Of a DNA stretch of 64,000 bases, positions 1 through 42,048 are shown piece by piece (position 1 is the stretch's first letter; the number at the start of each line of letters is the position of its first letter). The position numbers and the translations under genes were made by a program. Origin of the DNA: Elsinoe ampelina (Eukaryota); contig ML992508.1 in NCBI GenBank assembly GCA_010093995.1, forward strand, positions 282,506-346,505. Reading direction: 5' to 3'. The notes under the pieces are model-generated. The model did not search any database. It was not told the origin of the DNA and saw nothing but the letters and a program-made list of their open reading frames with translations.

Positions 1-2
1 GC

Positions 3-527
3 TTCGACCGCTTCACCAGCGCCGAGTCCCTCCCAGCAACAGACTACACCTGCCGGAAATGCGACGCCCAACAAGCGGCCACCAAACGCCTGAGCCTCGC
101 TCGTCTCCCGCCCGTCCTCCCCGTGCATCTGAAACGCTTCAGCCACTCCAAGAACAGCGGGCAGGGCATTAAACTCGACACCAAAGTCCGCTTCGGGACG
201 AGCGTGGATCTCTCCGCTTACATTCGGGGCAATGTAGGGAAGAAAGACACGGCGAAGGAGAAGAAGGAGAAGGACAAGGACAAGGATAAAGACAAGGGCG
301 ATAAAGATGAAACCGAGGACAAGAAAGGCAACAGACCCATCTACGAACTCAGCTCGGTCATCGTGCACAAGGGCAAGATGGACAGTGGGCACTATATTAG
401 TTTCTCGAGGGTGTACGACGAGTGGTTCATGTTTGACGATTCGAAAGTGGTGCTGGTCGACGAGAACGAAGTGTTGGCGTCCGAGGCGTATATGTTGTTT
501 TATGTGGTGAGGGATATTGATGTTTAG
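3..527 (+). CDS. UBP8: Ubiquitin C-terminal hydrolase (USP family, UBP8/USP22-like), 3' part; 5' end lies outside the window
   Basis: Frame is open from base 3: FDRFTSAESL...YTCRKC...VHLKRF, then the His-box YELSSVIVHKGKMDSGHY and WFMFDDSKV...AYMLFY. Orthologue assignment is by resemblance only. Confidence 0.8.
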   Translation, partial: FDRFTSAESLPATDYTCRKCDAQQAATKRLSLARLPPVLPVHLKRFSHSKNSGQGIKLDTKVRFGTSVDLSAYIRGNVGKKDTAKEKKEKDKDKDKDKGDKDETEDKKGNRPIYELSSVIVHKGKMDSGHYISFSRVYDEWFMFDDSKVVLVDENEVLASEAYMLFYVVRDIDV

Positions 528-660
528 TCCTCGGTCGCACAGGCCAGGGGTTTTCTGGGAGGGGAGTGAGGGCAGGGCAAAGGGCAGTTTACGCATTTTA
601 CGATCAAGCCTTGATGGCAACTCCTTGTTTCTATACAGTGCGTGGATAAAGGTTTCTTCT

Positions 661-2083
661 CTACTGGTCGTCGATGACGTGCAGGTACTTTTTCTCTTCA
701 CGCTTCTCGCGCTCTGTCATGGGTGGGAGGTCGTAGTAGGCTGAGCTGCGGTAGCCTTGCTGTTTGAGTTGTCAGTGCGTGATTGCACGTGAGATCGTGA
801 CTGGGTTTACGTACGAGGTATTTAAAGGTGAAGCGGGCAAGATCACCCGGCTCAATGTCGAGGTCGGCGAAGGTCTTGGCCTTCGGATCAATGACCTGGT
901 CAAGGAACTCACGGACGACTTGGTCCCTGCTGGTCGTGGGCCACCAAAGAGCCTTATTGAGTACGTCGGCCAAGGGTGCCATGATCTGTCGCGGCACGTT
1001 GATGTGTCTCCTCTGCTTCATGATTTCGCGCTCCACGAGTTCGCGGATATGCGCCATACTGTAGACCTTGGGGCCGTACAGTTCGTATGTCTCACCAGCG
1101 GTGCTGTCGTCGTAGAGCATTTTCTCGAGCGCCTCACCAACATCGATGACGTGGACTGGCGCAAACCTCTCTTGGAAGTTGTTGGATGTGAGAAGGTTGC
1201 CAGGTTTGGCGAGACGGTGAAGGAGACGATCCTCGAAGCCGAACATTGGTGCTGGTCGAACAAGGGTAGTCTCTGGGAACACATCTCGGACAACTTGCTC
1301 GCCTCGGGCTTTGGTTCGGTAGAATGCTGATGGTGAATCGGTGAGGGCGGAATGTGATGAGACATGCACGAAGCGGTCGACATCGTATTTCGCAACAGCC
1401 TCTGCGATCTTGTGCGCGCCATCCACATGTACATCCTCGAAGTCGAAGTTCTTCGTTTCGTAGTCACGGCCAATGAGGTTGTAGACGATGTCCGAGTGTC
1501 GTACGGACTCTTCTATCGATGCAGTGTTGCGGAGATCATATTCCTGGTGTGGTCAGCACATATTCAGTACCTGTTGGGCACATAGCGCACAATAAAAACC
1601 ACCCGACCCAGATCGCCCGACACCTTTAAGTGCCTCTTTGCCATCTCCTCTCGAAAGGGAACCACGACTGTGCATCCTGATCTTGCTATCGCCTTGTCAG
1701 ATCTTGTATTTCCCACTTCTCGCTTGCCTCATACCGAGCCTGTTGACAATATACCGTCCTAGAAACCCCGTAGCGCCAAAGACCGTAGCTGTGTGTCCTA
1801 TTCGCATGTTATTTTTGTGCTTGGTTCGTTGTGCCTTCGGAGACCATACCACCCAGTGAAGATCTGTTCAACTGTCAGAAGAGCTTTGAGGAACACACTG
1901 AGAAATTTCTCACCTTCCACCAGAGATCCTGATAATTGGCTTGCCTGTCCTTGTGATCGCAATGTCCTGAACGGATCGCTTGCTAGTTGTCGACAGGTTT
2001 CGTGAGGCATTGGCGAGTGAGGGAGCTCCGGAGCGACACAAGTGTCGGTGGAGTGCGACACTTGAAGCTCCCAGTCCCGCCAT
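661..2083 (-). CDS. NADH:ubiquinone oxidoreductase 39/40-kDa subunit (NDUFA9-like, atypical SDR), multi-exon
   Basis: ATG at 2083 gives a mitochondrial-presequence-like N-terminus followed by DIAITRTGKPIIR. Later exons encode TATVFGATGFLGRYIVNRL, RFVHVS, VRPAPMFGFEDR and YELYGP. The last exon GYRSSAYYDLPP...YLHVIDDQ* ends at 661. Confidence 0.92.
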
Positions 2084-2438
2084 GATTGTCGTAGAAGCAA
2101 GCGCAAGGAATACGAGGTTGTCTGGCGTAGTGTCGGAAGAGATGAGGTCGTTGGCTTGTCGTTGCTGCCACCCGCGGGCAAACTTCGGCAGCTAAATGGA
2201 GCAAATCCGATTCGTCAATGGGACCAGCTTCATCACTTTTCACGTCACCACAATCTGCACCTGGTAGTTATTCCATCCAACTTACTACCAGAAAGTTGCA
2301 AAGCAAAGGCTCGTCTTCATATGTCAATATATATACTCGTTTGGTTGCCGTCATAAATACTACCACAAATCTCGGGCTGGTAGTTTCCAGACCCATTGCA
2401 CTACCAGGCCGCAGCCCCCCTGGATCTCGCGCTTGGTA

Positions 2439-3404
2439 CTACCAGGGGCTCCTCCAGTAGAGCTCATACCAATCATCACGCTGTGCCAGAGTCGCCCTGA
2501 CCAGCTCCATGGACTCCACACTGTTCCCGCTGGTGTCAACCTGATCCGATGTTAGCAAAGCTTGGCTCACAGACTGACTGGATGCGCCTCACCGTCATGA
2601 TCTTTCCCTCAAGCTGGTAGTACGCCACGATCGGCCCAAGCTTGTCCTTGAACTCGGCGAACCTTTTGTCGAACAACGCCTCTGTGTCATCTCTGCCCTC
2701 GAGTCTACGGGTGAGATACCTCCTCTTGGCCTCATCCTCTGGGCAGTCGAAAAGCAGCACGAACTTGGGATCCCCGATCTGCAATCAATCTTAGCGGAAA
2801 CCTCCAAATGAGCTGTAGCAACTCACGGCCTTCTCTACCGCAATGACCTGGTTGATGTCGCGGGGGAACCCGTCAATGATGAAACGGTGACGACCCTTTT
2901 CTTTGTGGGTGTCCATGTGCTTGGCGAGGATGGCTGCCAGAATCTCGGCTGGGATGAGTTCCGCTATGTTGATGCACATGGTGGCAGTCCAGTCCAGCAA
3001 GGCGTCTCTCTTCTTGACTGCCTCACGCAGGATGTCGCCGACAGATAAATGGACGAAGTCGTACTCGGAGGACATGTTGAGGCACAAAGTTCCCTTCCCT
3101 GATCCTGGAGCTCCTATCGGCCTTCATCAGTCATCTATGCTAGATGTCAGGATTTTAGCTCACCAATCACGAAGACGATATAATCTTCAATGTGAAAATC
3201 CAGCTTGATACTCGGCATTTCGACCGTCTCAATCTCGTTCTTCTTCGGAGACATGATTTTCTTGGCCTGCTTGAAGTACTGCTCGATATTAGCCATGTTT
3301 CCGATGTGTTTGGTCACAATCGCAGCAGTGATACCAGTGGCAGCGGTCGATCTGAGAGGTTTCGAAGTGAAGCAAGTGAAGGCAATCATTTTCACAAAGC
3401 ACAT
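2439..3404 (-). CDS. Nucleoside monophosphate kinase, adenylate kinase family (divergent UMP-CMP kinase-like), 4 exons
   Basis: Removing GT-AG introns 3114-3163, 2779-2826 and 2541-2592 gives P-loop VFVIGAPGSGKGT, YDFVHLSVGDILRE, FIIDGFPR and VLLFDCPE..AKRRYLTRRLEGRDD...KRF. Stop at 2439-2441. Start is uncertain (ATG at 3404, 3389, 3296 or 3254). Confidence 0.9.
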
Positions 3405-3454
3405 GCTTGCCGCCTACTTTGGGGTCGACCTTTGTCGACATTCACATGCTCGAC

Positions 3455-3461
3455 TATAAAA
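3455..3461 (+). promoter_or_regulatory. TATA box (TATAAAA) in the short divergent kinase/viperin intergenic region
   Basis: Canonical TATAAAA about 115 bp upstream of the viperin ATG (3576), followed by a CA/CT-rich leader. Confidence 0.5.
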
Positions 3462-3575
3462 GACCGCCCGACTCCGACCCCTGACCTTCCTTGCCTCAAA
3501 CATATCACACAGACAGCAGTCACACACAAGATCTTCTCTTCACAGCATTTTGGATACAATTCGGACAACAACATC

Positions 3576-4595
3576 ATGCTCCTCACCTTCGCCACGTATG
3601 TGGCCGACCATGTCTGGCTGCAGGTCATTCTCGCTGTCCTGGTCGCCGTCATCACGACCCTGCCCCTGGTCCCAGCTCTTCGCATCTTGGCCGAGGACTT
3701 GACCACCACTCGCCCCATCAGTGTCAACTACCACTTCACCCGCCTCTGCAACAAGTCCTGTGGCTTTTGCTTCCACACCGCCCTGACCTCTCATCGCGAG
3801 ACCTCTGATCGTGCAAAGGCCGCTCTCCATCTGCTCAAGAAGGTTGGTATGCGCAAGCTCAACTTTGCAGGAGGAGAACCTTTTCTGGCCGCCTCGTTCT
3901 TGGGCGAGATGGTCGACTTTGCCAAGCAGACTCTTCGCCTTGAATCAGTTTCCATCGTCAGCAATGGATCCTTGATCACCGAGAAGTGGATGTCTCAGCA
4001 TGCTCACAACCTCGACATCCTTGCAGTCAGCTGTGACTCTTTCGACGAGGAAGTCAACATCGCCATTGGTCGTGGGTCTGGAGATCAGGTCACAAAGCTC
4101 TACCAGATCAAGGAGTGGTGCGTCAAGTTCGGTGTCAAGTTCAAGATCAACACCGTCGTCTGCGCACTCAACAAGGACCAGGACATGAATCATCATATCC
4201 AGCAGCTTGAGCCCTTTCGCTGGAAGTGCTTCCAAGTCCTCGAAGTCAAGGGAGAGAACGATGGCAACGACACTCTCCGCTCTGTCGACCGCTTCTTGAT
4301 CACTGATGAAGACTATGCCAGCTTCTGTAAGCGTCACAACCAGCAACCATCCTTCGTGCCAGAAAGCAACAAGGTCATGGCTAAGAGCTACCTCATCCTC
4401 GACGAGTACCTTCGCTTCCTCGATCGTGACGGGAGATCTCCAAGCGGCTGTATCCTGGATGTCGGCGTCAAGAAGGCTTTGGACAGTGTTTTCTGGGATC
4501 AAAAGAGCTTCGTCGAGAGGGGTGGAGTTTTCGACTGGACCAGGGAGGAGACCGGTTGCAAGAATGACGCTGCCGCCAAGGAGCTCGAATGGTAA
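3576..4595 (+). CDS. RSAD2: Viperin / RSAD2-like radical SAM enzyme (ddhNTP synthase family), 339 aa, intronless
   Basis: SVNYHFTRLCNKSCGFCFHTA (CxxxCxxC), NFAGGEPFL, SIVSNGSLI, AVSCDSFDE, FKINTVV, RWKCFQVL, VPESN..M..SYLILDEYLRFLD, ILDVGV, RGGVFDW and a terminal Trp (LEW*) all match viperin hallmarks. Hydrophobic N-terminal segment. ATG at 3576 in ATCATG context. Confidence 0.96.
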   Translation: MLLTFATYVADHVWLQVILAVLVAVITTLPLVPALRILAEDLTTTRPISVNYHFTRLCNKSCGFCFHTALTSHRETSDRAKAALHLLKKVGMRKLNFAGGEPFLAASFLGEMVDFAKQTLRLESVSIVSNGSLITEKWMSQHAHNLDILAVSCDSFDEEVNIAIGRGSGDQVTKLYQIKEWCVKFGVKFKINTVVCALNKDQDMNHHIQQLEPFRWKCFQVLEVKGENDGNDTLRSVDRFLITDEDYASFCKRHNQQPSFVPESNKVMAKSYLILDEYLRFLDRDGRSPSGCILDVGVKKALDSVFWDQKSFVERGGVFDWTREETGCKNDAAAKELEW

Positions 4596-5487
4596 TTGCG
4601 AGGCAAGCGGGCCGGGGAGATTATCGGACGGACTGCTATCTTCAAGTGGATCGCCTCAACCAGAACTCACGGGATGAGGAGGATATCACAGCGCCATCTC
4701 CTGGTGGTCGCTCTTGAGTTGCTGCATACACTACAATCGTGAGACACTTTCCCATTTCTTGATACCGCAGAAAGATCCCATTCCCTCATTTGCATCTTTG
4801 CGATACCTTGTCAACTTAAAACAGCGATAGTCTTCGACACATGACATGTGATTACCGTCGTCGGCCTATGACATGTGCCTCTCTACTGCCCTCACATAGA
4901 GGGTTTATATACATTGTTGACGGCCCTGTCTGTCAGCAAACCACTTGAATGACCGGACGGTCAGTCTAACGGTTAAGAGCTGCTTCGTAAACCAGGTCCA
5001 CGACCGAGTTTCGATCAGCGACGACATTCCACTGAGAATTGTCCCTCTGGTTCGAGTCCTGACGATGGTATGCGAGCGACGGCGATAATTGAATCGTCGG
5101 ACTAGTATGGTACCAGATCTCGCCTCTTAAACAACCCCCCAGAGTAAGACAAAGTCGCAAGGAGTGTTCGAACTGATCTTTTTGCATTTTGGTGAGGTGA
5201 GGTGGATGTGAGAATCGCTGTGACTAGGTGGTGGGAGAGCATGTGATGGCAGATGCTAGCTCATTTCTGGCGAGACTGCCAACGAGACAATTGTGTCCGC
5301 TTTCCGCTTGCTGGCATTCTCGTGGGCCATGTTATTGACGACCTTTCTCTATGTTAGATCTGCATTCATCTCTTCCTTTTTACTTCACACTTCACATACC
5401 TCAAACCCTTCCATCGATCATTAACCAAACACTCCTCGCACACGAAAATCGGTCACTGCAATCACAAACTCCATAGCTACGAGCGAT

Positions 5488-6819
5488 ATGTCGAAACCCC
5501 TGCAGAAAGCGTTTGAAATCGAGCGTAAGTTTCCCTGCCTCTCACCTTTGTTTTCCATGAATGCCGGCTCGCCACCATTCGCTGCCCTTCGCCGTCTGCC
5601 AGACCAACGATTCACGGACACTTATCTGGACTCATGTGGACGCCTCATGGCCGAAGGAATATACATTCGCCGCCGCAACGGAGACTACGAAGCCAAGGTT
5701 TCACTTGGTGGCACTTTCACAAAGTCCCAATTTCAGGAGATCGATGGCAAGGATGACGTTGAGCTGTACCTGAAAAAGCATGGAATCAAGATTGGCGATC
5801 TAGCCAGTATTGCCAGGTTCAGCACTCACAGAATGGCTTGGATCGCCGACGAAGAGTTCCTGGTGGTGATGGACAAGACGTGCTTCGGACATCAAGTCGG
5901 TGAGGTTGAGTACATGGGAGATATGGTACGTGCGACATCCGCATCCTTCACATTCGACGCTGACCACCTGCAGGAGGCATCTACCAGCAACAAGGTCAGC
6001 AGCAACTCCAGCGCGACATCCGAACATATGCCCGATGCCTCCCCCGCCTCCTCACTCGCCGTCTTCCTCGACGACACCCTCAGCAAAGTCGTCGGCTTCC
6101 TCCTCACCACCTTCACCTCCGACATCCACCCCGCCTGTCCCACCCCTTCTCCCAAGCGTCTACCCAGCAACCCCGCCACAGTCTCCCCCACCACCAACCC
6201 AGACAACACGGACAGCGACAACACCCGCGAGGCGCCCTCTCCCCAGCGCACCACCCACTCAAACATCCACCCAACCACCATCTCGACCTCCCTCCTCACC
6301 GAATTCTCCAGCCACATCCAAGACGCTACCCCCTCCCTCACCTCCAACAACACCTCCCCTCCCTCCTCCCGCCCTCACGCCCCCACCCACCCTCACTCCC
6401 AGCCGACCTCCCCCCTCACCTCATCGGAGAAGGCCCACCTCGCACTCGCCGCCCAGAAGATCGACGCCTTCATGTCCCGCTACGCCTGGGCTTTCAACCC
6501 GGGTAGTCCCCGCACCGATCCTACCGGCGTTGATCCAGTGAGCAGCGCTGCCCGCCTGGCCACCACTTTCGACAGCGGACAATGGGAGGAAGGGCAAGTG
6601 GTGGGGAAACTCACGGCTTATTTCAGGAGGTACGGGGTCCCCGAGGGATGGGGGAGGGGTCGTGCTTCGGTGGGTGTCTCGCTGGGTGATGCATCGGGGA
6701 GCGAGATGGGGTGTGAGAAGCGAGGTCGGTTGGTAAAGGGGAGGGGGGAAGGGATAGATGGTGGTCGTAAAGAGGTGGTGGGGACCGGGTGGTGTGGGGT
6801 TATGGATTATGGGTTGTGA
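5488..6819 (+). CDS. CYTH / triphosphate-tunnel metalloenzyme, thiamine-triphosphatase-like, with a long low-complexity insertion
   Basis: N-terminal ExExK motif (FEIERKF), FTDTYLD...L...GIYIRRRNG.YEAK, F.T.R..W, VVMDKTCFGHQVGEVE, then KIDAFMSRYAWAF and VGKLTAYF after an S/P/T/H-rich insert. Confidence 0.85.
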   Translation: MSKPLQKAFEIERKFPCLSPLFSMNAGSPPFAALRRLPDQRFTDTYLDSCGRLMAEGIYIRRRNGDYEAKVSLGGTFTKSQFQEIDGKDDVELYLKKHGIKIGDLASIARFSTHRMAWIADEEFLVVMDKTCFGHQVGEVEYMGDMVRATSASFTFDADHLQEASTSNKVSSNSSATSEHMPDASPASSLAVFLDDTLSKVVGFLLTTFTSDIHPACPTPSPKRLPSNPATVSPTTNPDNTDSDNTREAPSPQRTTHSNIHPTTISTSLLTEFSSHIQDATPSLTSNNTSPPSSRPHAPTHPHSQPTSPLTSSEKAHLALAAQKIDAFMSRYAWAFNPGSPRTDPTGVDPVSSAARLATTFDSGQWEEGQVVGKLTAYFRRYGVPEGWGRGRASVGVSLGDASGSEMGCEKRGRLVKGRGEGIDGGRKEVVGTGWCGVMDYGL

Positions 6820-7451
6820 TTCTTCACTCACTTGGGGCATAGCAGGGGGCGGGACCGCAAAGGACGGGGGAGCAAGTTTCGGCGTTCTGGTAGGAGTGTG
6901 GTGCTCAAGCAGGTTGGGGGTTGGGGGTCGAAGGTATGATCCCGGAGTATGGTTATAGGCTTTTCGCGGCGGGTAGTGGTGATGGAAGCTGGTAGTACGT
7001 CCTGCCTGGTAGTTCGGCTTGAGCGAGGGTTTGGGAGCTGGGATATCAAGCTGGTTCCTCACGATTGTACGATATGCTGGTAGTTGCTGATAGAGAAGCT
7101 GTCCTCCCGTCTGGTAGGAACAATCCAGCGATAGCCTCGAATGGGAATAGTCAAACACCGTATGAGAAAGTCCGGACTGCTACCAGTAGTACCACGAGGC
7201 TCTGTGCGAATGCCCATCCGCATCGAGATTTCAACCACACCTTGAATGACTTGCGCGGGCATAATTTCAAGATCAAAGAGTTCATTAATCCCCTCCGGCT
7301 ATCATCTCAGGCGACCTCTAGCGCCTCATACACAAGCAGCACGGAGCCGATAACAATGATATCCTGTACATATGCCCGTGCTCTGTGCTTTCCCTTCTCT
7401 ATCCCTCATCTATCCCCTGTTTCCTTTCTTTCCCCTGCCTATGCTCCAAGG

Positions 7452-10400
7452 CTACCTATTCGACAGCCCCTCAAACATATTCTCGCCTTCATCCCAGCCC
7501 TCGTCATCATCGTCAAACGGCTGCTGGTTCTTGCCATACCCTAAGAAGTCCGTCTCGTATTGCTGCTGCTGTCCACCAGATGCACCTGGATTACCACCTC
7601 CGTACCCCCCCTGACCTTGTCCGTGTCCATTCATGCCGTTACTTTGCCCGTAGCCTTGACCTGAGTATGGGCCCTCGGGAGAGCGGCGGCCAGCGAGAGA
7701 GCCTGTCTCGGCTGCCTGTTGTTGATCTTGAGAGCCTTCGAGGCGTGCCTGTTGCTGGAGAATGTCAGTGACTGTCACACGTAAGGGAACTAATGAGACT
7801 CACCTCCTGCCAACGCTGGTACTGGACAAACTCCTCGGCCTGTCTATCCTCATTGGACTTGGCCCGCTTTTCTTCTCGTTGAGATTGCTGAGCCTGCTGT
7901 TGCTGCTTCTGTCCCTTGAGCTGCATTTGAGGGTGCATCATTTGTACTTTGGCAAGGTAGCTATACATGAAGTTGCTCAGTAATACTTGGCTGTACAAGG
8001 CGCGCTTGGGGTTGGCGAGCTTGATGTGAGCCATGCGATAGATGGCACGTTCTTCGAGTATGGAGAAGCGGGTCCAGTTATAGTCGATGTCTGGCTTGAG
8101 AACGCGTGGAGGAGGCTCTGGGGACAAGCTGCGTTGTGAGTTGCGTTTCTTCTCGTCCGCTGCGGAGCCGGAAGACTTGTTCCGCTTACCGCCACCGAAG
8201 AGAGCGGAGAGTAGGCCGTCTTTTTGCTTGGTCGTGGGCTCATCTTTGGATTTCCGGGAGGTCTTGGCACGCTCCTCTTCGAGCTTGATATCCTCGCGAT
8301 TAAGTACTAGGCTTTCTCGTCCTCGCGACGGAGCAGCAGAGTCGATAGAGGTCTGAAGCACGTCGAGCCGGGTCTTGTCTGCCGAGGATGCGGCGAGCTT
8401 GCTGCTCACTTTAGGCCGCCGGAGCTTGTCCTTGTCTCGCTCCTTGTCCTCTCGTTCCTTGAGCTTGGCGGCTTCGCGCTCTCTTTCCTTTTCCCGTTCG
8501 CGCTCACGAGCTGCCTCCTTTACAGCTTCACGATCAGACTTGTCAAGCTGCTTGTCTTTGTCCTTTTCCCCACCAGTAAGCCATCCCCAAGACGTCTTCC
8601 GGCCAGCTTTCGAGTCGGCTTTCTTAGAGTCATAGGTTGGCACCTGGGTAAGCTCGTCAGTACGAGAGCCACCACTACCCGGCCACAGTGATGGATGCGA
8701 GGATAAATCGTCCAGAGTGGAACTCTTCTTTTCTTCCGAGTTGAGACGAGATCGAGCGCTTTGTACGAGAGGACCTTGAGGTCGAGGGGCTGGCTGCGCT
8801 GGCTGCTGTATAGAAGATTTGCGTTCGGGGAATATGTGCTGTGGTGCTGGCTCAGGTGGTGGGGGCGTTTCTATTATGTGCGGAACAGGTGCATTAGGAC
8901 CCGGCAATTGCGCTGTCGTCCATCCTCCTCCTGTGGCAAGTCGCGAATGGAATTGGTTAGTTCGTGGCTCATTTGAATGCTCTGATTGAGGTCGTTGCTC
9001 TTCTGGCGTTGGTGATTTCCGGATTTGAGGCACGTGATCTTCCGACACTGTTGATGGACCAAGCTGAGGTCGCGTGCGTCGACCGGGTCTCGAAAAGTTC
9101 TCTGCAGGTTCGGAGGCTGATGAGGCGACTGGATCTGTCCGCACCCGCGAAAGACCAGGCACCGGCTCATCCGCGCCCAGTACAGGCGATTGGGCAGGTG
9201 AATCGTCGAGGTCATTATGTCTTCCAACCGCTCTTCTGGACGCTGGTGTCCTTTCGCCCTTTCGTAGACTTCCTCGCCGGTATGCTGTCCTTGTTGACCG
9301 CTTCAACCCGCCCGGAAGACCTGGTATCATCGGCATATCATCTCCAGCAGGTACTCCAATTGCTGAATCCTGGCTCTTTCTCACAGTATCGATGCTCAAC
9401 TTTCGCATTAGGCTTGACGGATCGTTGACCAGATTCTCCAGCTCGGCCAAGTTGGCTACCGTCTCGTGCTGACCACTTTCTGACCGTTGTCTTTCCAGCC
9501 GCTCGGCACCATCCTCATATCCTCTGTCATTATTAATCTGCCTTGATAGCATGCTCTTCTTCCTCTTGATCCCGCCAGAAGTCTGTCGCTCGAGTCCGAC
9601 TGGAGATAACGATTGACCCTCGTCGGATAATCTCTTGAGACGTTCCACCCTATCCTCCACAAAAGTCTTGAACTCCTTTGGTGCCAATTCGGGATGTAAT
9701 CGTGCCGGAACCCAAAACAGCTTTGACGGGTCATCCTCGTCGGCGGTAGGCGAAGGTGGTAATGCTGGTATGCCGAACCCTCCTCCAAATGCCGGCAAAT
9801 CGGGATCGGCCATATCAACATTCATGGACATTCGGCGGATTGCTTGGAGATTGCTGAGCTCCTGAGCGACGGCGGCCGGGCTGGATTCGTAGTCGATATC
9901 ATTGAGCGGGAATTGCTGTGTCGCTGTGTTGTCCGACGAAGACGATCTACTCAGCGTCGGAGGTGGTGATATCGGTGCTCCGTCTCCATGACCCAGACTG
10001 GACTTTCTCATGGGTTCCGCGCTCTTACTGCTTTCTCCCCTCACTTGTATCCGGTCCTGCATGGATGCGAGCTGATTTGGTGATCTCGGCGGGCTTGTTC
10101 GCTTTGTGTCGAAATAATTAGCACCCTCGTATGCCTCTTTCGGAGTCGTCAAGAAACTGAGCGGTCTCGTCTTGCCGGTCTGCTGTTGAGGGCTCGGGTA
10201 GTCGTCATCATCACTGCCATACATTCCTCCGATAGCCTCTGTGACATGATGATTCGTGTCGCTGATGGATATTTGAGGAGCATGACCGCGGCGGGAGGGA
10301 TGTCGTTCCGAGCCCAACGGCCTTGTTGTGGTTGTGGACTGGGCGGAGTTAGTTTTGGTCCCGTGGTCAAGTTTGCGCGACCACACCGCAGCCATGAGGG

Positions 10401-10457
10401 GAGTGTTGGCGGTGTATTTGATTCAGGCGGCTCTGGGATAGGTGGACGTACCTGCAT
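7452..10457 (-). CDS. ZDS1: Zds1-like protein (PP2A-Cdc55 regulator) with Zds_C domain
   Basis: Zds_C motif RFSILEERAIYRMAHIKLANPKRALYSQVLLSNFMYSYL and LFWVPARLHPELAPKEF. A 2-codon first exon (MQ, 10452-10457) precedes intron 10339-10451 (GTACGT...ACTAAC...CAG). A second intron near 7755-7803 leads to the final exon ending at 7452. Confidence 0.9.
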
Positions 10458-10782
10458 ATCAGAAAGAGTCGCTGGTTGGTCGAAGGGCGGTCATTCAGGC
10501 TGAGCGGCGTGATGTTGCTCCTTTCGAGCGGGCTCACCACCCAGGACCATCTGGCGCCGCTATAAAGATGCTGATGATTGGTGAATGTGCGCGGGATGTC
10601 GTACAGAAGGGGTCCGAGGCGGTATCTTTGTCGTAGGCAGTGTATTCGAGATAATCAGCGGCACTTGGTCAAGTTGGAATCGCGAAGTTGGACAGCCTCA
10701 GACCAATGAGAGCGAAGAGACCAATAAGAAGCCAATCGGAGCCGGTTTCTTGGCATGCATAGCCTCTTTTCTAGCTGTTCTG

Positions 10783-13659
10783 GGGCGCGTTCGGTTGGAG
10801 GAGGTTGCTCTTTTGAAAAGAGGCCGATTTGGCTTTTTTAGCGTTGATTCAAGAGGTTGCTGTTGTAAAAGAGGCTCTTCGATAGCGCGTTTAGTAGATT
10901 AAAAAGAAGAGGCTACCTCTTTTAGAAGGTGGCTGTGCATAGAGGAGTTATAATTTTGCTTAAAGATTGTTAACGTACATAAACTCTATATCTAATTACT
11001 TACTATTATAGCCTCTAACACCCTTAATAAAGTAGCAGAGATTGCTACTACTATACTAACTTAATCGGAGGTGCTTTAGATACCTCCTCTATCTTAATTA
11101 CTAGTAAAGGGGAAGTAGCCTACTAATATTAATTAGACTAAAGAAATAGTAGAGGTTACTCTATACTCTCTCCTTAACTTTTTTAACACTAGTAGCCGTG
11201 CTAGAGGAGTCTTTTAGCTAGAGGCTTAGACCGGAGCAACTAAGGCAGTAAAAGAGGTTACTAGTACTTAAGCTAAGAGGCTTAATAAAAGCAAATTAAA
11301 GCTTAAAATTAACACTTATAAGAATGCCTTAAGGTGCTAGTAAATACTAGAGAATAACTCTAGATAGAAGAAGACTAAAGCTAGCCTTATAATAGCTAAC
11401 TCTAAAGTTATAGATAACTATTTTAAAGCTTATAAGGAGGTAAAGATATTTAGATATAGGCTAATACCTTATTATAACCTCCTTAGTACTATCTTTAGTA
11501 ATGTTACTACTACTAGAGCATTTACTTAAGGCATTTAAGATATTACTATCAACTCTTAATTATTAAATTATCTAGCTAACTCTCCTTCTCCCTCTCTATC
11601 TCTAGCTCCTTTAAGAGCTAGTACGCCTATATAATTAATAAGGAAGCGTATAAGTAAGGTTTGTAATTTAACACTAAGTAGAATCTAGCAGAGATTAAAT
11701 AGTACTAATAAGGTAGTAAGTAGTATTAAAAAGGTAGCTAAGTAGTTAAGCTAGATAAATAACTATTTAGAGTAAAGTAGTACTACTATAGTTAGTAAGG
11801 GAGTAATTAATCTACTATTTACTAAGTTTAAATATCTTACTACTAATTATACTATTATAGTTACTAAGTTACTAGAGACTCTAGTAAAGGCTAGGCTCTT
11901 TTCTATAGCCTTAAAGTAGTAGTATATAGCTATTATAAAGTAAGCACTTTAGAAAGAAGAACTACTAATCGATAAGAAGCTACTAGACTAGCTAGATAGA
12001 AGTAAAATTAAGATAGAAGAAGTTAAGGTTAAGGTTAAGAAGAAGATTAAAATTTGTAGCACTACTAACTAAAGCTAGAGATAGAGATTAATAAAGAAAT
12101 ATATAAAGGGACACTCTTTAAGAAAGAAAAATATCTCTATATCTATTCTATACTATTAGTAGTATTTTTTACTCTCCTCTAATGTCTTTAAGCCTATACT
12201 AGCTCTAATTACTATATTAGGCTAGTGCATATTTAATATTAACCTCCTCTTCTCTTTATCTCTTCTTAATAATTATACTATATCTACATAGCTATTATAT
12301 TATACTTCTTTATTATTACTAGATTATTATTCCCCTTAATAGTATTATTACTATCTTCTATAGTAACTACTATTGTCCTTAAAGCCTCCTTAGAGAGATT
12401 AAGCTCCTTAAGGCCGCTATAAAGATTAATCTAATTATAAAGGCTAGTAAGTATATATACTAGCTTAACTTAAGTATCTATACTAAATTCTCTTATAGTA
12501 TTAAATATCTACTACTACCTCTTAAAAACTCTAAAGGTTCTTTTAATAATATTATATAAGGCTAAGTGCCTTAGATTAAATAGCTCCTTAGAGTTCTCTA
12601 GCTTATTTACTACTTTATATTAGTCTTAGAGGTAGTACCTTATATCTCGATAAGGTATAAGAAGATCTAGCATATTTAAATATCTAGTATTACTAAGGAA
12701 GTAATAGCCTTCTAGCGCTCTAAAACTATTAACTTCTCGTATAAAGGTAAGTACTTAACTATTATAAATAGAGCTCTTTTATCTAGCTAATATATAGGTA
12801 AAATTACTATTAAAATTACACACCGCTAGCATATTCTAAGATAGCTAGCCTTTTTAATTTCTCTAAGCTTATAACTTACTAAGTATATAAGTATAAATAT
12901 AAGATCTATCTAGTGCTTCTATATAACTAGTAAATTAATAATATTTGCTCTTAATCTTCTCTAGCTAGAGATTGCCTTTATCTTCTAGTAAAGTAATAAC
13001 CTCTTAGTAGATCAAAATTAGTACCTCTAGCACTTAGTAGAAGACAGTAGAGATAGTAGCTTTAGAGTAATAAAACTAGTCTTGTATATTACTAAAGAAG
13101 GCGCTATAGCTATATATCTTTAAGAAGATTAAGAGCTTCTACTCTACTAAGATATTATAGCTAGCCTTTAGTAGCTTATCTCTTTATAACTTCTCTACTA
13201 AAGGTATAAAGCTTAAAGGCTATAATTGAGTTAAGTAGTATAATTAGTAAGTATCTAGTAACACCTCCTTTGTTAATCTTTTACTATTAATAGAGGTAAT
13301 AGATCCTTCTAGCCTTACTCTAGAAGGCTAGTAGTTATTATACTAATTACTAGCAGTAGTAGTAGTAGCACTAGCACCTTTAATTATAGCTTAAAGGAGT
13401 TATTTATCTATAGATAAAATAGTTTATAAGAGTATAGAGAGTATAGAGAGTATAGCCTCCCTTAAAAAAGGAAAGTTAGAGTAAACACTCGAGAAAGAGG
13501 CTAGCTATACCGGATAAGGGCAATTACGCGAAGAGGCACTTCTTTTTTAAAGAGTTAGTGCTAAAAAAGAGCCTCCACCAAACGCGTAGCCTCTTTTTCA
13601 ATCTACCGGCCTTAAATCACGCCAAAAGAGGCCGTTTTCAAGCTCCACCGAACGCGCCC
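10783..13659. mobile_element. Full-length PIF/Harbinger DNA transposon, RIP-inactivated
   Basis: TIRs GGGCGCGTTCGGT (from 10783) and ACCGAACGCGCCC (to 13659), with 3-bp TSD CTG at 10780-10782 and 13660-13662. Interior is AT-rich with TpA excess. Minus-strand transposase remnant LIPYRDIRYYL*...ENSKELFNLRHLALYNIIKRTFRVFKR at about 12505-12720; plus-strand Myb/SANT-like remnant at about 11210-11450. Confidence 0.9.
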
Positions 13660-14026
13660 CTGGAACCCGATGATGAATTGACACAAAACACCCTTGAATC
13701 ACTCTATCTCTTTGCTGTCCGTCAAACCCTACCCGTCATACCTTTTCCAGACTCGACGTGGGCAGGGGCATGTGCCTCATCGAGTCAATGCCCAATACCG
13801 GCTGCAGATCAATATAGATGAAGCAAAGCCACTGGTCAAACCATGGATCAGCCAATCACTTGTCGCAGCATCGGCACCTGTAACACGCATCGACACAAGC
13901 AGAGAGACATGGAGGATATTTTGTAATCTTCATTGATACCACTTCGTTCACTACTGAAAGCTACAAAGAACAGGTTAACCCCAGCAAGGTCGATCACCGA
14001 CCAGCAGATTGCAGAGTCGCCTTTGA

Positions 14027-37858: not shown

Positions 37859-38788
37859 TCACTGACCTTCTGCTTTGCTCTTCAGCAGCGGCTCTATTTC
37901 ATCCTTTTTCTGCTTCAACTCATCCTCCAGGATTGGTCGTGGGATCTCCAATGCATCCAGCGTCCGAGTGTAAGTGATGCCTCCCATTCTCGCGATAGGT
38001 CGCAGAACTTCTGGGTCAATCAAGTTGCGGTCCTCATTGATGGCATCCTCCCTCACCCAGAAGTTGGTGCCTTCGATTACTGCTAGGGTACCAGTCTTCT
38101 TCCCAGGCGTGGATCTGCTTTCAAATTCCTGAGTGTTGAGAAGCTTGCCTTCGATGCTGAAAACCGCCTCCTTGACTCTTGAAGGCTTGACTGTCGTTGA
38201 TGGTGCCGGGTGGAGCCCCGTCACTGCCCATTCCGAAGTGCCATACGGAGTGTTGATGGCGGTTGCGTTTGCTGCTTCAACGAAGTGCTCGGAGATGATG
38301 TTGATGACGCACTCTCCCGTCTCCAGCAGGTTCTTCAAGGTATCTTTCGCGTTGGCCTTGCTGCTGGCGAATCCGATGGTGAAAACTGGAGGATCATGGT
38401 TGACTACCTGAGTGTAACTGAAGGGGGCCAGGTTGGTGCTCTCGCCGTCCTTTGAGGATGTGCTGATGAAACCAATGGGACGGGGGACAATACCCGATAT
38501 GAGAAGCTTGTAGTTGGCCACGGCTGGTCGTCCCTCTGCGTATGGGTTGATCTCCACATGGTCCTTCTTGAGGCTTTCGCCGCCGTCATTGGCCCCTGAT
38601 CCGTACTTCCAGCTTGGATCTTTGGTTTTGGTATATGTGAACTTCTTCGATTGGTCCCAATCGGGCCTCGACGCCTGGACTTTGCTAAAGTCTCCGTGAG
38701 GGTTTCGCTTCACGGATTTTTCTGCATCAAGGTGCTCTTCGTTTGGCAAGCTCGCCTTTGCTGATGAGTCGGCTGATGGGGGTGCCAT
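37859..38788 (-). CDS. Flavin reductase-like (FMN-binding split barrel) protein
   Basis: YKLLISGIVPRPIGFIST, NLAPFSY, KDTLKN..ETGECVINII and RPIARMGGITY. Start at 38788 or 38860. Confidence 0.9.
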   Translation of the reverse strand: MAPPSADSSAKASLPNEEHLDAEKSVKRNPHGDFSKVQASRPDWDQSKKFTYTKTKDPSWKYGSGANDGGESLKKDHVEINPYAEGRPAVANYKLLISGIVPRPIGFISTSSKDGESTNLAPFSYTQVVNHDPPVFTIGFASSKANAKDTLKNLLETGECVINIISEHFVEAANATAINTPYGTSEWAVTGLHPAPSTTVKPSRVKEAVFSIEGKLLNTQEFESRSTPGKKTGTLAVIEGTNFWVREDAINEDRNLIDPEVLRPIARMGGITYTRTLDALEIPRPILEDELKQKKDEIEPLLKSKAEGQ

Positions 38789-39069
38789 TGACCCCGATAA
38801 TTCAAGTGATCTGTGGGATGCGTGTCTAGGATCCTCGAAGTATATATGAGTATCGGGCAAAATACCTCATCATCGAAGGCCGTATCTACCCACGCTGCCG
38901 TTCATGACGTCGGGGCCGATTCACCCACTCTGCGGCACATTTCCGCTTCAGCGAGTGCGCCTACTCTATTCTTCCTTTCATCCCCTAATGCGGTGAAAAT
39001 TTTCAGTGACTTTTAGCGTCGGCCTCAGCCGCCTTCGATTTGTTAGTAATCAACACCAAAAAAGAAGGG

Positions 39070-41375
39070 ATCTGCAGTATTCTATAGTGACTAGCAGAAC
39101 CTCGTAAATAAAGCTAAAGAACTTAGTATAATAAGCTAATATTACTCTTATAAAGGTATAATAGCTTACTAATAGCTAATAAGAGTTACTTCTTATAATT
39201 ACCTCTTCCTCTAGCTCCTCCCTCTAGCTCTTATAATTCACCTCTAGTAGTTACTAGAGTCTCTTTTTAGCGTGTAGTAATAGAGGACTTTACTAGTTCT
39301 AATATTAAGAATAATATATACTTTATAGCGTATAAGGAGGCTAAGATAGCTAGAGCACCTATAGCTATAGAGGTACTAGCGCTAGCAGTTAAGGAGGAGA
39401 AGGAGAAGAAGGAGAAGGAGGCTAGTCCTATACTAGCGCTAGTAATAAGTAATAATTTACTAGGGGATAATTCTCTCTTTAAGCTAGTAAAACTTAACTA
39501 TTAAGATCGAGTAATTAAGCTACTACTAGAGTTAGATAAGGTTAACAAGAGTAACTAGCTAATTTGCCTATTCTAGTTGTTCTTTATAGACGAGTTATTT
39601 AAGTACCTTACTAATTATACTAATAGCTATACCTCTTTAAGAGGCGCTAGTAAATTAACTTCTATAGTAAAGAGACTATAACCTTAGAAGAAGATATTAA
39701 AGAGAGAGCTAATAATCTAGTTAGCTTAAATTATCTATTTTAGACTATACTAATAGTCGCTTATTACTAAGTATTAGAGTTATAATAATTAGAGGCTATA
39801 GTATCTTATTACTTAATATCTCTTACTTTAGTACTTCTAGTAATTAAAGCGCTTCTTCTACGTCTCTAATAAGCTTCTCTCTCTATCTTTAATATAGTAG
39901 TAATCTGTCTTTAACAAGGTAAAGAAGCTAGTAGAGTACCTCTTAGAGCACTAGTAATAGTATATTACTCTAGCCTTAGAGGTTATAATTAATAAGTCGA
40001 TAGTAAAGTTTAGTAGTCAATTATACTATACTTACCTAATAAAGAATAAGCTAATTATTAAAGGCTATAAGATACTTACTCTCTATAAGTATAGATATAC
40101 CTATACCTTTCTCTTTATAAGTAAATTATTGTCTTATTATAGCCTACTATTAATAAGGCTACTAGAGGTAAGTAGTATAGAACTATTATAAACTTTATAT
40201 ACTATAATTTACCTTATATACTAATTGCTAAGGATACTCTATCGGTTTGCTCTATTCTATAATAACCTCTTTAGTAATATACTACTCTTTATTATACTTT
40301 AATAACTAAGTGTTAGCGCTACTAGTATAGTAAGGCTAACCTCTAAGTTCTATCTAAAGGCATATAGTTAGATTAATAAGAAGAAGTTACGCCTTAAATA
40401 GGGCTAATTAAGTACAATTTTATCTTTATAAACGAGCGCTTAAATAACTACTTTACCTCTTTAGATAGAGGAGTTAGTTTACTCTATCCTCTAGTAAGAT
40501 TACCTTCTTATTTAATTTCTTACTACACTTTACAAACTACGCGAACTACTAGAAGCTATCCGCTACTAGCTAATAGTCTACTACTAAGATAAGTAGTTTA
40601 AAGAGTATATATAGAAGATATAGAGTAAGGTAGCTAAGAGGTTACTTTAGCTACTAGTAGTAGTAGTTAGCTATAACTATTTTATAGGCTTAGTAGATAT
40701 TACTAATTAATATAGAGCTACTTATTTGCTTTAACTAAAGGCCTTACAAAATTAGCTACTACTCTTCTTTTAGCTACTAGAGTGTTCTATTATTAACGCC
40801 TTCTAAATTAGTACTTAAATCTATAGAGATAGTTTAGAGTATAGTTACTACACTATCTATAGACTCTTCTACTATTAATTAGCTTAGTCTTTACTAGATA
40901 AGGGCATTAGATTAATAGAGGCTAAGTAGCCTCTAAACGTTATATAGTTATAAATAAAAGCTAGAGCGTAAGTTACTAGCAATAATTAATAGTTACACCG
41001 CTATAGTTATATAACAAAGAACACTAAGCTACTACTAGAGCGCCTTACTTAGCCTTACCTCTATTAAGTTACTAATGTATTAACTCTCTAACACTGCTAT
41101 TATTACTACTAGCTTAAAGCTTAAGGCTTAAAAGAGAAGATATACTAGACTTGTAAGAAGTGCTTAAGGTATAATAAACTACTCTATCTCTAAGACTAGT
41201 ACTTTAAGAAGTTTCACTAGTACTCCCTCTAGTAATGATAAATTATTCTTATTTCTATACCAATTAAAAGCGCTTAGCTTTAACTACAATCCGCTATTAC
41301 TCCGGCATTAATTAGTTATAGATTTATAAAGTTATTACACCTTGAATTATTAACGTTATTAAGCTTAAAGAGGTG
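39070..41375 (+). mobile_element. piggyBac-like DNA transposon remnant, RIP-inactivated; ends not resolved
   Basis: AT/TpA-rich block. Plus-strand remnants IKRFFYVS (~39844) and VIINKSIVKFSSQLYYTYLIKNKLIIKGYKILTL...YTYTF (~39982-40110) revert under RIP rules to the piggyBac-type motif VDESMVKF.GRS....MKNKPI.EGYKI. No matching TIR pair or TTAA TSD found. Confidence 0.8.
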
Positions 41376-42048
41376 AAGATTGCCGCCAAGAGCGTGATCA
41401 GCGCGATCGACGAGTGCTCCACTCACCAAAAACGCACGAGGGGATTCCGCTAATTTTCTGGATTACATGCCGAGCATATCGAGACTGACAGCAATCCATA
41501 AGCATGGGAGCGGATCCAGGATGACAATCGTGGGCCGATCTTGGCCCACTGATTAACGGTGCTTCGATATTGAAGTGCAATGCGAACAAGTTGTCGTCGC
41601 GCTATCCCAGCAATGCCCGCTCCGGTATTGGGAAGCACTTGAGGGAAAAGGAAACAGAATGACCCGTCGGCTCATTGCTCATGCTTAATGGTAATCATTT
41701 GATGAGCTAGCTTTGCAGGAGTGCGTTGGACAATTCGACAGCGAGGCTTTCGGTGACCAGTTGCCGCAACCTGATCCCGGGGCAACACAATCGATGCGGC
41801 GAATATGTTCTTCCCTCGACCATCAACGCATCTGATCAGTCTCAGATATGTCAATGTATCATCTGTTAAGGAGCGAAGAACCAAAGATGCGGCGAGTCAG
41901 TGGCGGTTGGCGGCGTGAGAAGGCTGTCTTGGCACTGGTTGACCCCCTCAAGCCTCCGATTCTACTTGAGCCTTCATTGTGATCCTTCCATGTCTTTGCT
42001 CGTCCAACTCGACCTTTGTCACTCCTTTCGTCTCCTAGTAGATGGGCC

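Follow-up and report, generated by a model that had tools for sequence, protein, structure and literature searches.

A viperin gene cluster with a THTPA-like CYTH gene in Elsinoe ampelina and other filamentous ascomycetes

Within a stretch of 64,000 nucleotides from the genome of the grapevine fungus Elsinoe ampelina (Dothideomycetes, Myriangiales; assembly GCA_010093995.1, contig ML992508.1, positions 282,506 to 346,505), hereafter called the window, three genes lie together at positions 2439-6819, limits that are set by the stop codons of a UMP/CMP-kinase-type gene and of a CYTH (triphosphate tunnel) gene, and between these two lies a gene for the radical S-adenosylmethionine (SAM) enzyme viperin. 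To judge from sequence comparisons, the trio represents a conserved three-gene viperin module of filamentous ascomycetes, and we hold with considerable confidence that the three genes work as a single functional unit. The CYTH gene belongs to the branch of the mammalian thiamine triphosphatase THTPA. We propose, tentatively and with somewhat less than an even chance of being right, that its product hydrolyses the chain-terminating nucleotides made by viperin, the 3'-deoxy-3',4'-didehydro (ddh) forms of UTP and CTP (ddhUTP and ddhCTP), for self-protection or shut-off. The pairing of kinase and viperin genes in fungi is already published and is not new (Shomar et al., bioRxiv 10.1101/2023.09.13.557418); set beside the available text of that study, it is the recurrent THTPA-like third gene that is the new part, and it appears to be undescribed.

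Gene models and family assignments

The initial annotation of the window, made from the letters and their open reading frames (ORFs), had placed a nucleotide kinase, a viperin and a CYTH gene at 2439..6819, and the gene models and family matches bear out all three at these coordinates. The viperin gene (3576..4595, + strand) is a single exon of 339 codons, whose product has a hydrophobic N-terminal segment, the CxxxCxxC motif CNKSCGFC at residues 58-65 and the C-terminal tripeptide LEW. This tripeptide fits the pattern [LIM]-[DES]-[WF], which, according to the available part of 10.1101/2023.05.19.541488, serves in delivery of the iron-sulphur cluster and recruits the cytosolic iron-sulphur assembly machinery. 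Over residues 45-339 the protein matched PDB chains named viperin or viperin-like enzyme (6b4c_A, 1.1e-124; 7n7i_A, 1.3e-124), and it matched rodent RSAD2 in PDB at 1e-96, which agrees with its earlier assignment to viperin/RSAD2. It passed the model NF038283 (242 bits, cut-off 180), matched TIGR04278 at 3.1e-110 with a score of 368 bits that is under that model's cut-off of 450, and contained the radical-SAM core PF04055 (3.2e-11). Identity was 57-70% to 15 fungal viperins and 58-64% to the aligned homologues from Trichoderma and Aspergillus. By its family the protein is predicted to be a synthase of ddh-nucleoside triphosphates (ddhNTPs), converting NTPs to 3'-deoxy-3',4'-didehydro-NTPs. Its start codon lies head-to-head with that of the kinase gene, and the 321 bp between them (3255..3575) are presumed to be a shared bidirectional promoter.

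The kinase gene (2439..3254, - strand, stop codon 2441-2439) encodes 221 residues in a spliced frame of 666 nt with one terminal stop (join 3254..3164, 3113..2827, 2778..2593, 2540..2439). Its introns at 3163-3114, 2826-2779 and 2592-2541 (50, 48 and 52 nt) are of the GT..AG type with CTAAC- or CTGAC-like branch sites, and the P-loop GAPGSGKGT straddles the junction of exons 1 and 2, so that it exists only once intron 1 has been spliced out. The spliced product was 56% identical over 200 residues, reaching the C-terminus, to the kinase of Sphaceloma murrayae (P0382), and 55% identical to that of Elsinoe australis, also aligned to the end. The start was placed at 3254 because the homologues P0381 and P0382 begin with MSP; the deposited E. 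ampelina model (P0379) is partial and runs through intron 3. Both large exons matched the adenylate kinase family PF00406 (5.9e-23 and 3.5e-4), and P0379 matched PF00406, PF13671, PF13207 and PF13238 and lacked the long LID insert PF05191, which marks it as a short form. With exon 2 alone the best PDB match was the uridylate kinase 1uky (2.4e-17), and the UMP-CMP kinase 1tev was matched at 6.7e-13; TIGR01359 was matched by exon 2 (4.4e-21) and exon 3 (1.4e-7), both under the whole-protein cut-off in scans of single exons. In the Pfam searches neither large exon nor P0379 matched the thymidylate kinase family PF02223. By its sequence the window kinase is thus of the CMPK1/adenylate-kinase type, and vertebrate CMPK2 is of another, the thymidylate-kinase type. 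Of the earlier reading of this gene, the assignment to the UMP-CMP/adenylate-kinase family therefore stands, whereas the parallel drawn with the vertebrate pair RSAD2-CMPK2 is one of analogy and not of homology.

The kinase frame is also open upstream of the chosen start (3255-3404, - strand), with more in-frame ATGs at about 3404, 3389 and 3295. The upstream residues include many S, T, A, K and R, and an acidic residue first comes only near the chosen start; these ATGs could specify a longer, possibly organelle-targeted isoform, although the homologues use the downstream ATG. At window position 3301 in this region, runs X2 and X3 have G where the window has C, which is probably a strain difference.

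The CYTH gene (5488..6819, + strand, an ORF of 443 residues) was recognized in a less direct manner. Direct searches of Pfam, NCBIfam and PDB sequences gave nothing useful, and PF01928 was not matched at E<=10 by the whole ORF, its N-terminal 146 residues or its C-terminal part. The protein opens with EIERK at residues 10-14, an ExExK motif whose positions are invariant in all 12 aligned homologues, and the earlier CYTH call had rested on these five residues; it is upheld by the homologues, a profile and the predicted fold. An exhaustive HMMER search with the N-terminal 146 residues returned 228 relatives at E<=1e-3, and among the best 150 of these, 102 matched PF01928 at E<=0.001 (about 92 reached the gathering score). 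A profile of 40 fungal relatives matched five distinct PDB sequences at E<=0.01, all of them mammalian THTPA (1.6e-21 to 1.5e-20). In the AlphaFold2 model of the window protein a tunnel barrel is predicted, with block values of the confidence score pLDDT of 88-97 over residues 11-140 and the closing helices, and the best Foldseek match was mouse THTPA (5a64_A, 6.6e-10), the top nine matches being all THTPA and followed by other enzymes of the triphosphate tunnel metalloenzyme (TTM) family. The model of the homologue P0005 (pLDDT 81.3) likewise had THTPA as its best fold match, with a TM-score of 0.73 to 5a64_A. By homologues, profile and predicted fold, the third gene is a CYTH gene of the THTPA branch.

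The residues invariant in the 12 homologues are all kept in the window protein (E10, E12, K14, D44, Y46, D48, R61, R63, K70, E84, D129, E139 and E141). In THTPA, Trp-53 stacks on the thiazole ring and confers specificity for thiamine triphosphate (ThTP), as described in the available part of PMC8615392. The corresponding site is Tyr (in GIYIRRR) in the window protein and its Elsinoe-clade relatives and Trp in 7 of the 12 aligned homologues. The core barrel spans residues 8-146 (5509-5925), the closing helices are formed by residues 312-336 and 374-382 (6421-6495 and 6607-6633), and the conserved tail GVMDYGL is encoded at 6796-6816. The deposited model (P0003) begins at Met-24 and is thus without the ExExK motif; 5488 is preferred as the start because the E. 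batatas orthologue and 11 other homologues contain ExExK. P0003 is also without exactly the 16 residues of 5926-5973, a probable in-frame intron of 48 nt (GTACGT ... CTGAC ... CAG).

The N-terminal stretch ahead of the motif was surveyed in 251 homologues (proteins P0005-P0152 and P0276-P0378), of which 194 had both a Met start and the motif; 170 of these 194 had a pre-motif stretch of at most 40 residues. Its median length was 12 residues (n=194), it was rich in L, R, A, S and T, and it contained no acidic residue in 152 of the 170, so that in composition the fungal stretches resemble mitochondrial presequences. The stretch of the window protein itself has just 8 residues.

Recurrence of the trio and comparison with known systems

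The initial annotation had looked to the recurrence of adenylate kinase (ADK) and CYTH genes near fungal viperin genes in distant orders as the test of a cluster, and by four proxies, namely the order of accessions or locus tags, shared small contigs, merged gene models and the DNA of one further locus, such recurrence was found in three classes. In accession or locus-tag numbering, the CYTH and viperin genes were one to three steps apart in eight of the nine named species that were looked up. For instance, S. murrayae has consecutive accessions for CYTH (PNS14669), viperin (PNS14670) and kinase (PNS14671), and the CYTH and viperin genes are two steps apart in Rhinocladiella mackenziei (Z518_04931/_04933), Trichoderma virens (TrVFT333_004485/_004483), Parastagonospora nodorum (SNOG_07908/_07910), Periconia macrospinosa, Phaeosphaeriaceae sp. 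PMI808 and Podospora fimiseda, and three steps apart in Aspergillus sclerotiicarbonarius. The species checked represent Dothideomycetes, Eurotiomycetes and Sordariomycetes, with six orders. A search for kinases by exon 2, which was insensitive (25 matches among 266 candidates), named four linked kinases; the P. nodorum kinase tag HBI52_232980 adjoins the viperin tag HBI52_232990, and the viperin and kinase accessions of Melanomma pulvis-pyrius are consecutive.

When 120 of the 1940 viperins were compared, at least 21 of 115 CYTH relatives were found on a contig equal in size to that of a viperin; one of these 21 pairs is the window's own, and ten of the contigs measure 4,359-51,402 bp. Genes can be merged into one model only if they are neighbours on the same strand, and such models joined viperin and CYTH in E. 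fawcettii (P0004), ADK and CYTH in Uncinocarpus reesii (P0028) and CYTH and viperin in Mycothermus thermophilus (P0232).

The further locus for which DNA was available (L005, positions 1-12960) comes from a 6.65-Mb record that is labelled a bacterial (actinobacterial) metagenome-assembled chromosome; its genes are fungal-like with introns, and it looks like fungal (eukaryotic) DNA under a prokaryote label. Its CYTH gene (4633-4013) lies on one strand with an intron-bearing kinase gene (5657-4977, ADK by Pfam), and the viperin gene (5878-7005, radical SAM by Pfam) lies on the opposite strand, its product being 65% identical to the window viperin. This trio spans 3 kb, with kinase and viperin head-to-head across a gap of about 220 bp. 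Its flanks had no tblastn match to the NDUFA9, ZDS1 or hydrolase genes that neighbour the trio in the window, all eight other ORFs of at least 110 residues were without a Pfam match, and one side is AT-rich (19-36% GC). There are thus two gene orders or more, kinase-viperin-CYTH in Elsinoaceae and CYTH-kinase-viperin in L005 and probably in most species, and the kinase and viperin genes are divergent in both. That the neighbourhood has been kept despite rearrangement and different flanks argues for selection on the linkage.

Two further observations were made during these searches. The viperin model of Alternaria panax (P0185, 405 residues) ends in an AAA_28-type P-loop piece (3.9e-9), which may point to another kinase-like neighbour in that species or to a merging of models. 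A scan of metagenomes with viperin returned one fungal-like contig of 1273 bp without flanks and three unrelated radical-SAM loci.

As a control, 30 loci with full-length prokaryotic viperins were sampled, and 237 ORFs lying within 4.5 kb were called in a crude manner. A local hidden Markov model of the fungal CYTH family found nothing better than E=0.044 among these 237 ORFs. In Pfam searches with 84 of them (100-340 residues, within 3 kb, viperin excluded), none matched CYTH at E<=1e-5, a subset that larger or fused CYTH proteins would escape. A PF02223 neighbour was present in 4 of the 30 loci. As far as sampled, the link between viperin and a THTPA-like gene looks like a fungal feature.

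Few immune enzymes are common to bacteria, fungi and animals, and viperin is among them; to our knowledge, a nucleotide kinase is the one genetic partner so far known for it. Reportedly, both Fenwick 2017 and Lachowicz 2021 analysed fungal viperins. The initial annotation knew of no described CYTH partner for viperins, and this agrees with the literature that we searched, in which no paper was found to link viperin to thiamine triphosphatase, a CYTH domain or a triphosphate tunnel; seven papers contain both the words viperin and CYTH, though none has either in its title or abstract, and Shomar et al. is not one of them. A mention in Fenwick 2017, Lachowicz 2021 or the supplements of Shomar et al. 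is possible. A literature search for six locus tags likewise returned no paper. According to the available text of Shomar et al. (10.1101/2023.09.13.557418), fungal viperin genes are linked to CMPK1-type kinases in a convergent association, and the viperins of T. virens and of an Aspergillus make mainly ddhUTP. As in the window, viperin there adjoins a UMP/CMP kinase of the adenylate kinase family; that text names no third partner, with no occurrence of "phosphatase", whereas the window has the THTPA-like CYTH gene as a recurrent third member.

The vertebrate pair RSAD2-CMPK2 is similarly a head-to-head arrangement of viperin and a pyrimidine nucleotide kinase, but CMPK2 is of the thymidylate-kinase family and the window kinase is ADK-type without a PF02223 match. 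We know of no CYTH partner of the vertebrate pair. In that pair the kinase feeds the substrate of viperin (10.1101/2023.09.13.557418, available text). The mammalian 25-kDa THTPA (3bhd, 3tvl, 5a64, 5a65 and 2jmu), which provided the sole PDB sequences matched by the fungal profile and the best fold matches, shares with the fungal family the ExExK motif, the paired arginines, the catalytic Tyr/Lys positions, the acidic metal ligands and the C-terminal closing helix. Unlike THTPA, the fungal CYTH genes adjoin viperin and a pyrimidine kinase, and the window protein has Tyr for Trp-53, an insert of about 158 residues and the tail GVMDYGL; in most fungal members the motif is preceded by a short N-terminal extension that is basic and has no acidic residue, whereas mammalian THTPA begins directly at the motif. 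Arabidopsis TTM1 and TTM2 also combine a pyrimidine-type kinase with CYTH, and PDB 7z67 was among the fold matches; in contrast to the neighbouring genes of the window, however, they are fusions of CYTH with a uridine kinase, which belongs to another kinase family, and no viperin is involved. TTM1 and TTM2 have been tied to pathogen resistance and senescence, with reported activity on pyrophosphate (PMC8615392, available part).

Proposed role of the CYTH enzyme and alternatives

In the pathway that we propose, the kinase, which is transcribed divergently from viperin, would by homology raise the local level of UDP and CDP and hence of UTP and CTP, and viperin would turn these into the chain terminators ddhUTP and ddhCTP, which would act against RNA viruses. 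The tunnel of the CYTH enzyme would then bind the triphosphate of the ddh-nucleotide, with the base stacked on an aromatic platform (W in most members, Y in the window), and the terminal phosphate would be taken off in the manner in which THTPA acts on thiamine triphosphate. Such a step would limit or end the pool of chain terminators and thereby spare the host polymerases, the mitochondrial RNA polymerase above all, or it would start their disposal. Hydrolysis of ddhNTPs is proposed because those characterised enzymes that are most closely related take the terminal phosphate off a heterocycle-triphosphate (thiamine triphosphate in the case of THTPA; PMC8615392, available part), because the tunnel residues are intact and the aromatic platform is kept, and because the CYTH gene is genetically tied to the maker of such a triphosphate. 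Human mitochondrial RNA polymerase, moreover, is prone to misincorporate ddhCTP, which lowers mitochondrial transcripts (PMC11982959, available part); this gives a reason for a clearing enzyme.

Several points weigh against this proposal. It would seem futile to encode an enzyme that destroys a product next to the one that makes it, unless time or place keeps the two apart. The sole characterised close relatives are specific for thiamine triphosphate (PMC8615392, available part), and the tryptophan that gives this specificity is kept in most of the fungal members (7 of 12 aligned). The 30 prokaryotic viperin loci without a CYTH neighbour indicate that the partnership is not general to viperins. 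With regard to the linkage, accession and locus-tag numbers were assumed to follow the gene order in the genome; the CYTH and viperin genes of Grosmannia clavigera are 15 accessions apart; the viperin and a partial CYTH of Amniculicola lignicola are on contigs of different size; and 94 of the 115 CYTH relatives had no contig match, a figure that is uninformative, as 120 of 1940 viperins were compared.

Alternatively, the trio might be a biosynthetic cluster for a diffusible ddh-nucleoside, in which the CYTH enzyme starts the dephosphorylation towards ddhU or ddhC, and the nucleoside exits the cell or spreads in the mycelium, to be re-phosphorylated elsewhere or to hit competitors. Genes of a single small-molecule pathway are typically clustered in fungi and patchy in distribution, and the trio shows both; L005 adjoins AT-rich DNA, as do many fungal accessory clusters. 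The cordycepin cluster also pairs a nucleotide kinase with a phosphohydrolase. In addition, ddhC supplied to cells is converted to ddhCTP, which is active there (PMC11982959, available part). However, no transporter, further phosphatase or regulator was found beside the trio in the window, where NDUFA9 and ZDS1 flank it, or in L005 (8 of 8 ORFs without a Pfam match), and an enzyme of the THTPA type removes one phosphate only, so that the two further steps would need unlinked enzymes. We consider this alternative unlikely, though it ranks next after the proposed hydrolysis of ddhNTPs. It is less likely still that the linkage is passive, with the CYTH enzyme being a housekeeping thiamine-triphosphatase or tripolyphosphatase that stays near viperin by inherited synteny, which we regard as quite improbable. 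The nearest characterised relatives are indeed THTPA, public records call the fungal proteins thiamine-triphosphatase, and the 30 prokaryotic loci without CYTH neighbours would be expected in this case; yet the adjacency persists in three classes despite a rearranged gene order and differing flanks, and filamentous ascomycetes so far apart seldom keep microsynteny of this kind. Well-sampled model species, moreover, are absent from the named entries of both the viperin and the CYTH lists, among the matches listed, which fits joint patchiness.

The substrate of the CYTH enzyme may also differ from the one proposed. It might act on UTP and CTP, thereby setting their pool or the ratio of ddhNTP to NTP, on the 5'-triphosphate ends of RNA, or on inorganic tripolyphosphate. 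The CYTH/TTM family includes tripolyphosphatases, RNA triphosphatases and NTP-binding forms (PMC8615392, available part), a range also met among the fold matches, and from the tunnel residues alone one cannot tell which organic part the substrate has. The fungal family is nevertheless closest to the THTPA branch, in which a heterocycle is bound beside the triphosphate, and it keeps an aromatic residue at the corresponding site; hydrolysis of the kinase's own output would oppose the kinase, which leaves such substrates improbable in our estimation. A cycle of ThTP, in which the kinase makes ThTP from thiamine diphosphate, the CYTH enzyme removes it and viperin is linked for another reason, seems very unlikely. 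Cytosolic adenylate kinase is one of the two known routes to ThTP and THTPA its specific hydrolase (PMC8615392, available part), and the kinase and CYTH genes are adjacent on one strand in L005 and in the merged model of U. reesii. Against this, the kinase is nearest to UMP/CMP kinases and not to AK1, both arrangements have it head-to-head with viperin, the published analysis connects it with the pyrimidine substrates of viperin (10.1101/2023.09.13.557418, available text), and the tryptophan that stacks on ThTP is replaced by tyrosine in the window protein.

If the proposed hydrolysis of ddhNTPs by the CYTH enzyme is true, the recurrent third partner would add a step to the viperin pathway, namely the control or disposal of the chain-terminating nucleotide, and it would offer the first hint from genomes of how a ddhNTP-producing cell spares its own polymerases. 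It would also give the THTPA family a substrate hypothesis. The physiological role of animal THTPA has been called a mystery, and the function of the family has been a question for decades. A more far-reaching version, which is speculative and on balance unlikely, is that the whole THTPA family, the animal enzyme included, is an off-switch of the viperin pathway, a dedicated ddhNTP triphosphatase that shields the cell's polymerases and in particular the mitochondrial RNA polymerase, which is of phage type; mitochondrial targeting would then be the role of the N-terminal extensions in the fungal proteins, and ThTP would be a side substrate. Furthermore, the cluster marks fungi with an intact viperin system, which matters for the biology of mycoviruses and for the control of plant-pathogenic fungi with viruses.

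Insert, spacer, RNA coverage and flanking genes

The CYTH protein of the window carries, after the last barrel strand and before the closing helix, an Elsinoe-specific insert of about 158 residues (5926..6399, + strand), which is rich in S, T and P and predicted to be disordered, with pLDDT below 50 over residues 147-304 of the AlphaFold2 model. The insert is also found in E. batatas (P0370) and E. fawcettii (P0004), is shorter in S. murrayae (P0006), and is missing in the other 8 of the 12 aligned homologues. The segment 6001-6500 has a GC content of 0.65 and a GC skew of -0.60. Within the insert of the Elsinoe clade there is one semi-conserved hydrophobic helix (residues ~186-209), and at the C-terminus W.GVMDYG, followed by one or two residues, is common to E. 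ampelina, E. batatas, S. murrayae and a relative of 256 residues without the insert.

The spacer of 892 bp between viperin and CYTH (4596..5487), which is the presumed CYTH promoter, holds only short repeats. A tRNA scan of the spacer was empty, so that a tRNA-like stretch near 5040 was rejected, and Rfam gave no match at E<=1. At 4830-4877, about 620 bp upstream of the CYTH start, lies a tandem pair of a 21-nt element containing ATGACATGTG, with the copies 27 nt apart; the pair could be a binding site or chance. In a search for promoter motifs common to both intergenic regions just short two-copy repeats were seen.

Four sequencing runs were taken as RNA. In their contigs the introns of NDUFA9 and ZDS1 have been removed, which indicates that spliced RNA is present; the contigs give neither strand nor level. 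They cover the kinase gene with all three introns still present, and in run X1 a single contig, which has adapter letters at each end, spans 2260-4744 and thus the kinase gene, the spacer and viperin. This cover could represent an antisense or read-through transcript, retained introns or an effect of assembly. The CYTH gene is left uncovered at 5406-6056, with just small pieces of low depth at 6141-6579.

The gene content of window positions 1-10,000 was read in six frames and directly from the sequence, which gave five genes, a ubiquitin hydrolase fragment, a complex I subunit and the three cluster genes, followed by ZDS1. The hydrolase fragment (3-527) matched PF00443 at 2.7e-30. The block had been described as flanked by an NDUFA9-like gene and ZDS1, and both identifications hold: the NDUFA9/NUEM complex I subunit (~698-2100, - strand) matched PDB 7zm7_E at 4.2e-109, and ZDS1 (from 10422 downward, - strand) matched Zds_C at 1.2e-28. 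The GC content of the window is 0.50-0.58 outside two AT-rich blocks, one at 10500-14000, which starts about 4 kb past the cluster and in which GC falls to 0.29-0.33, and one at 38000-42000, in which it falls to 0.36; both may be degraded repeats.

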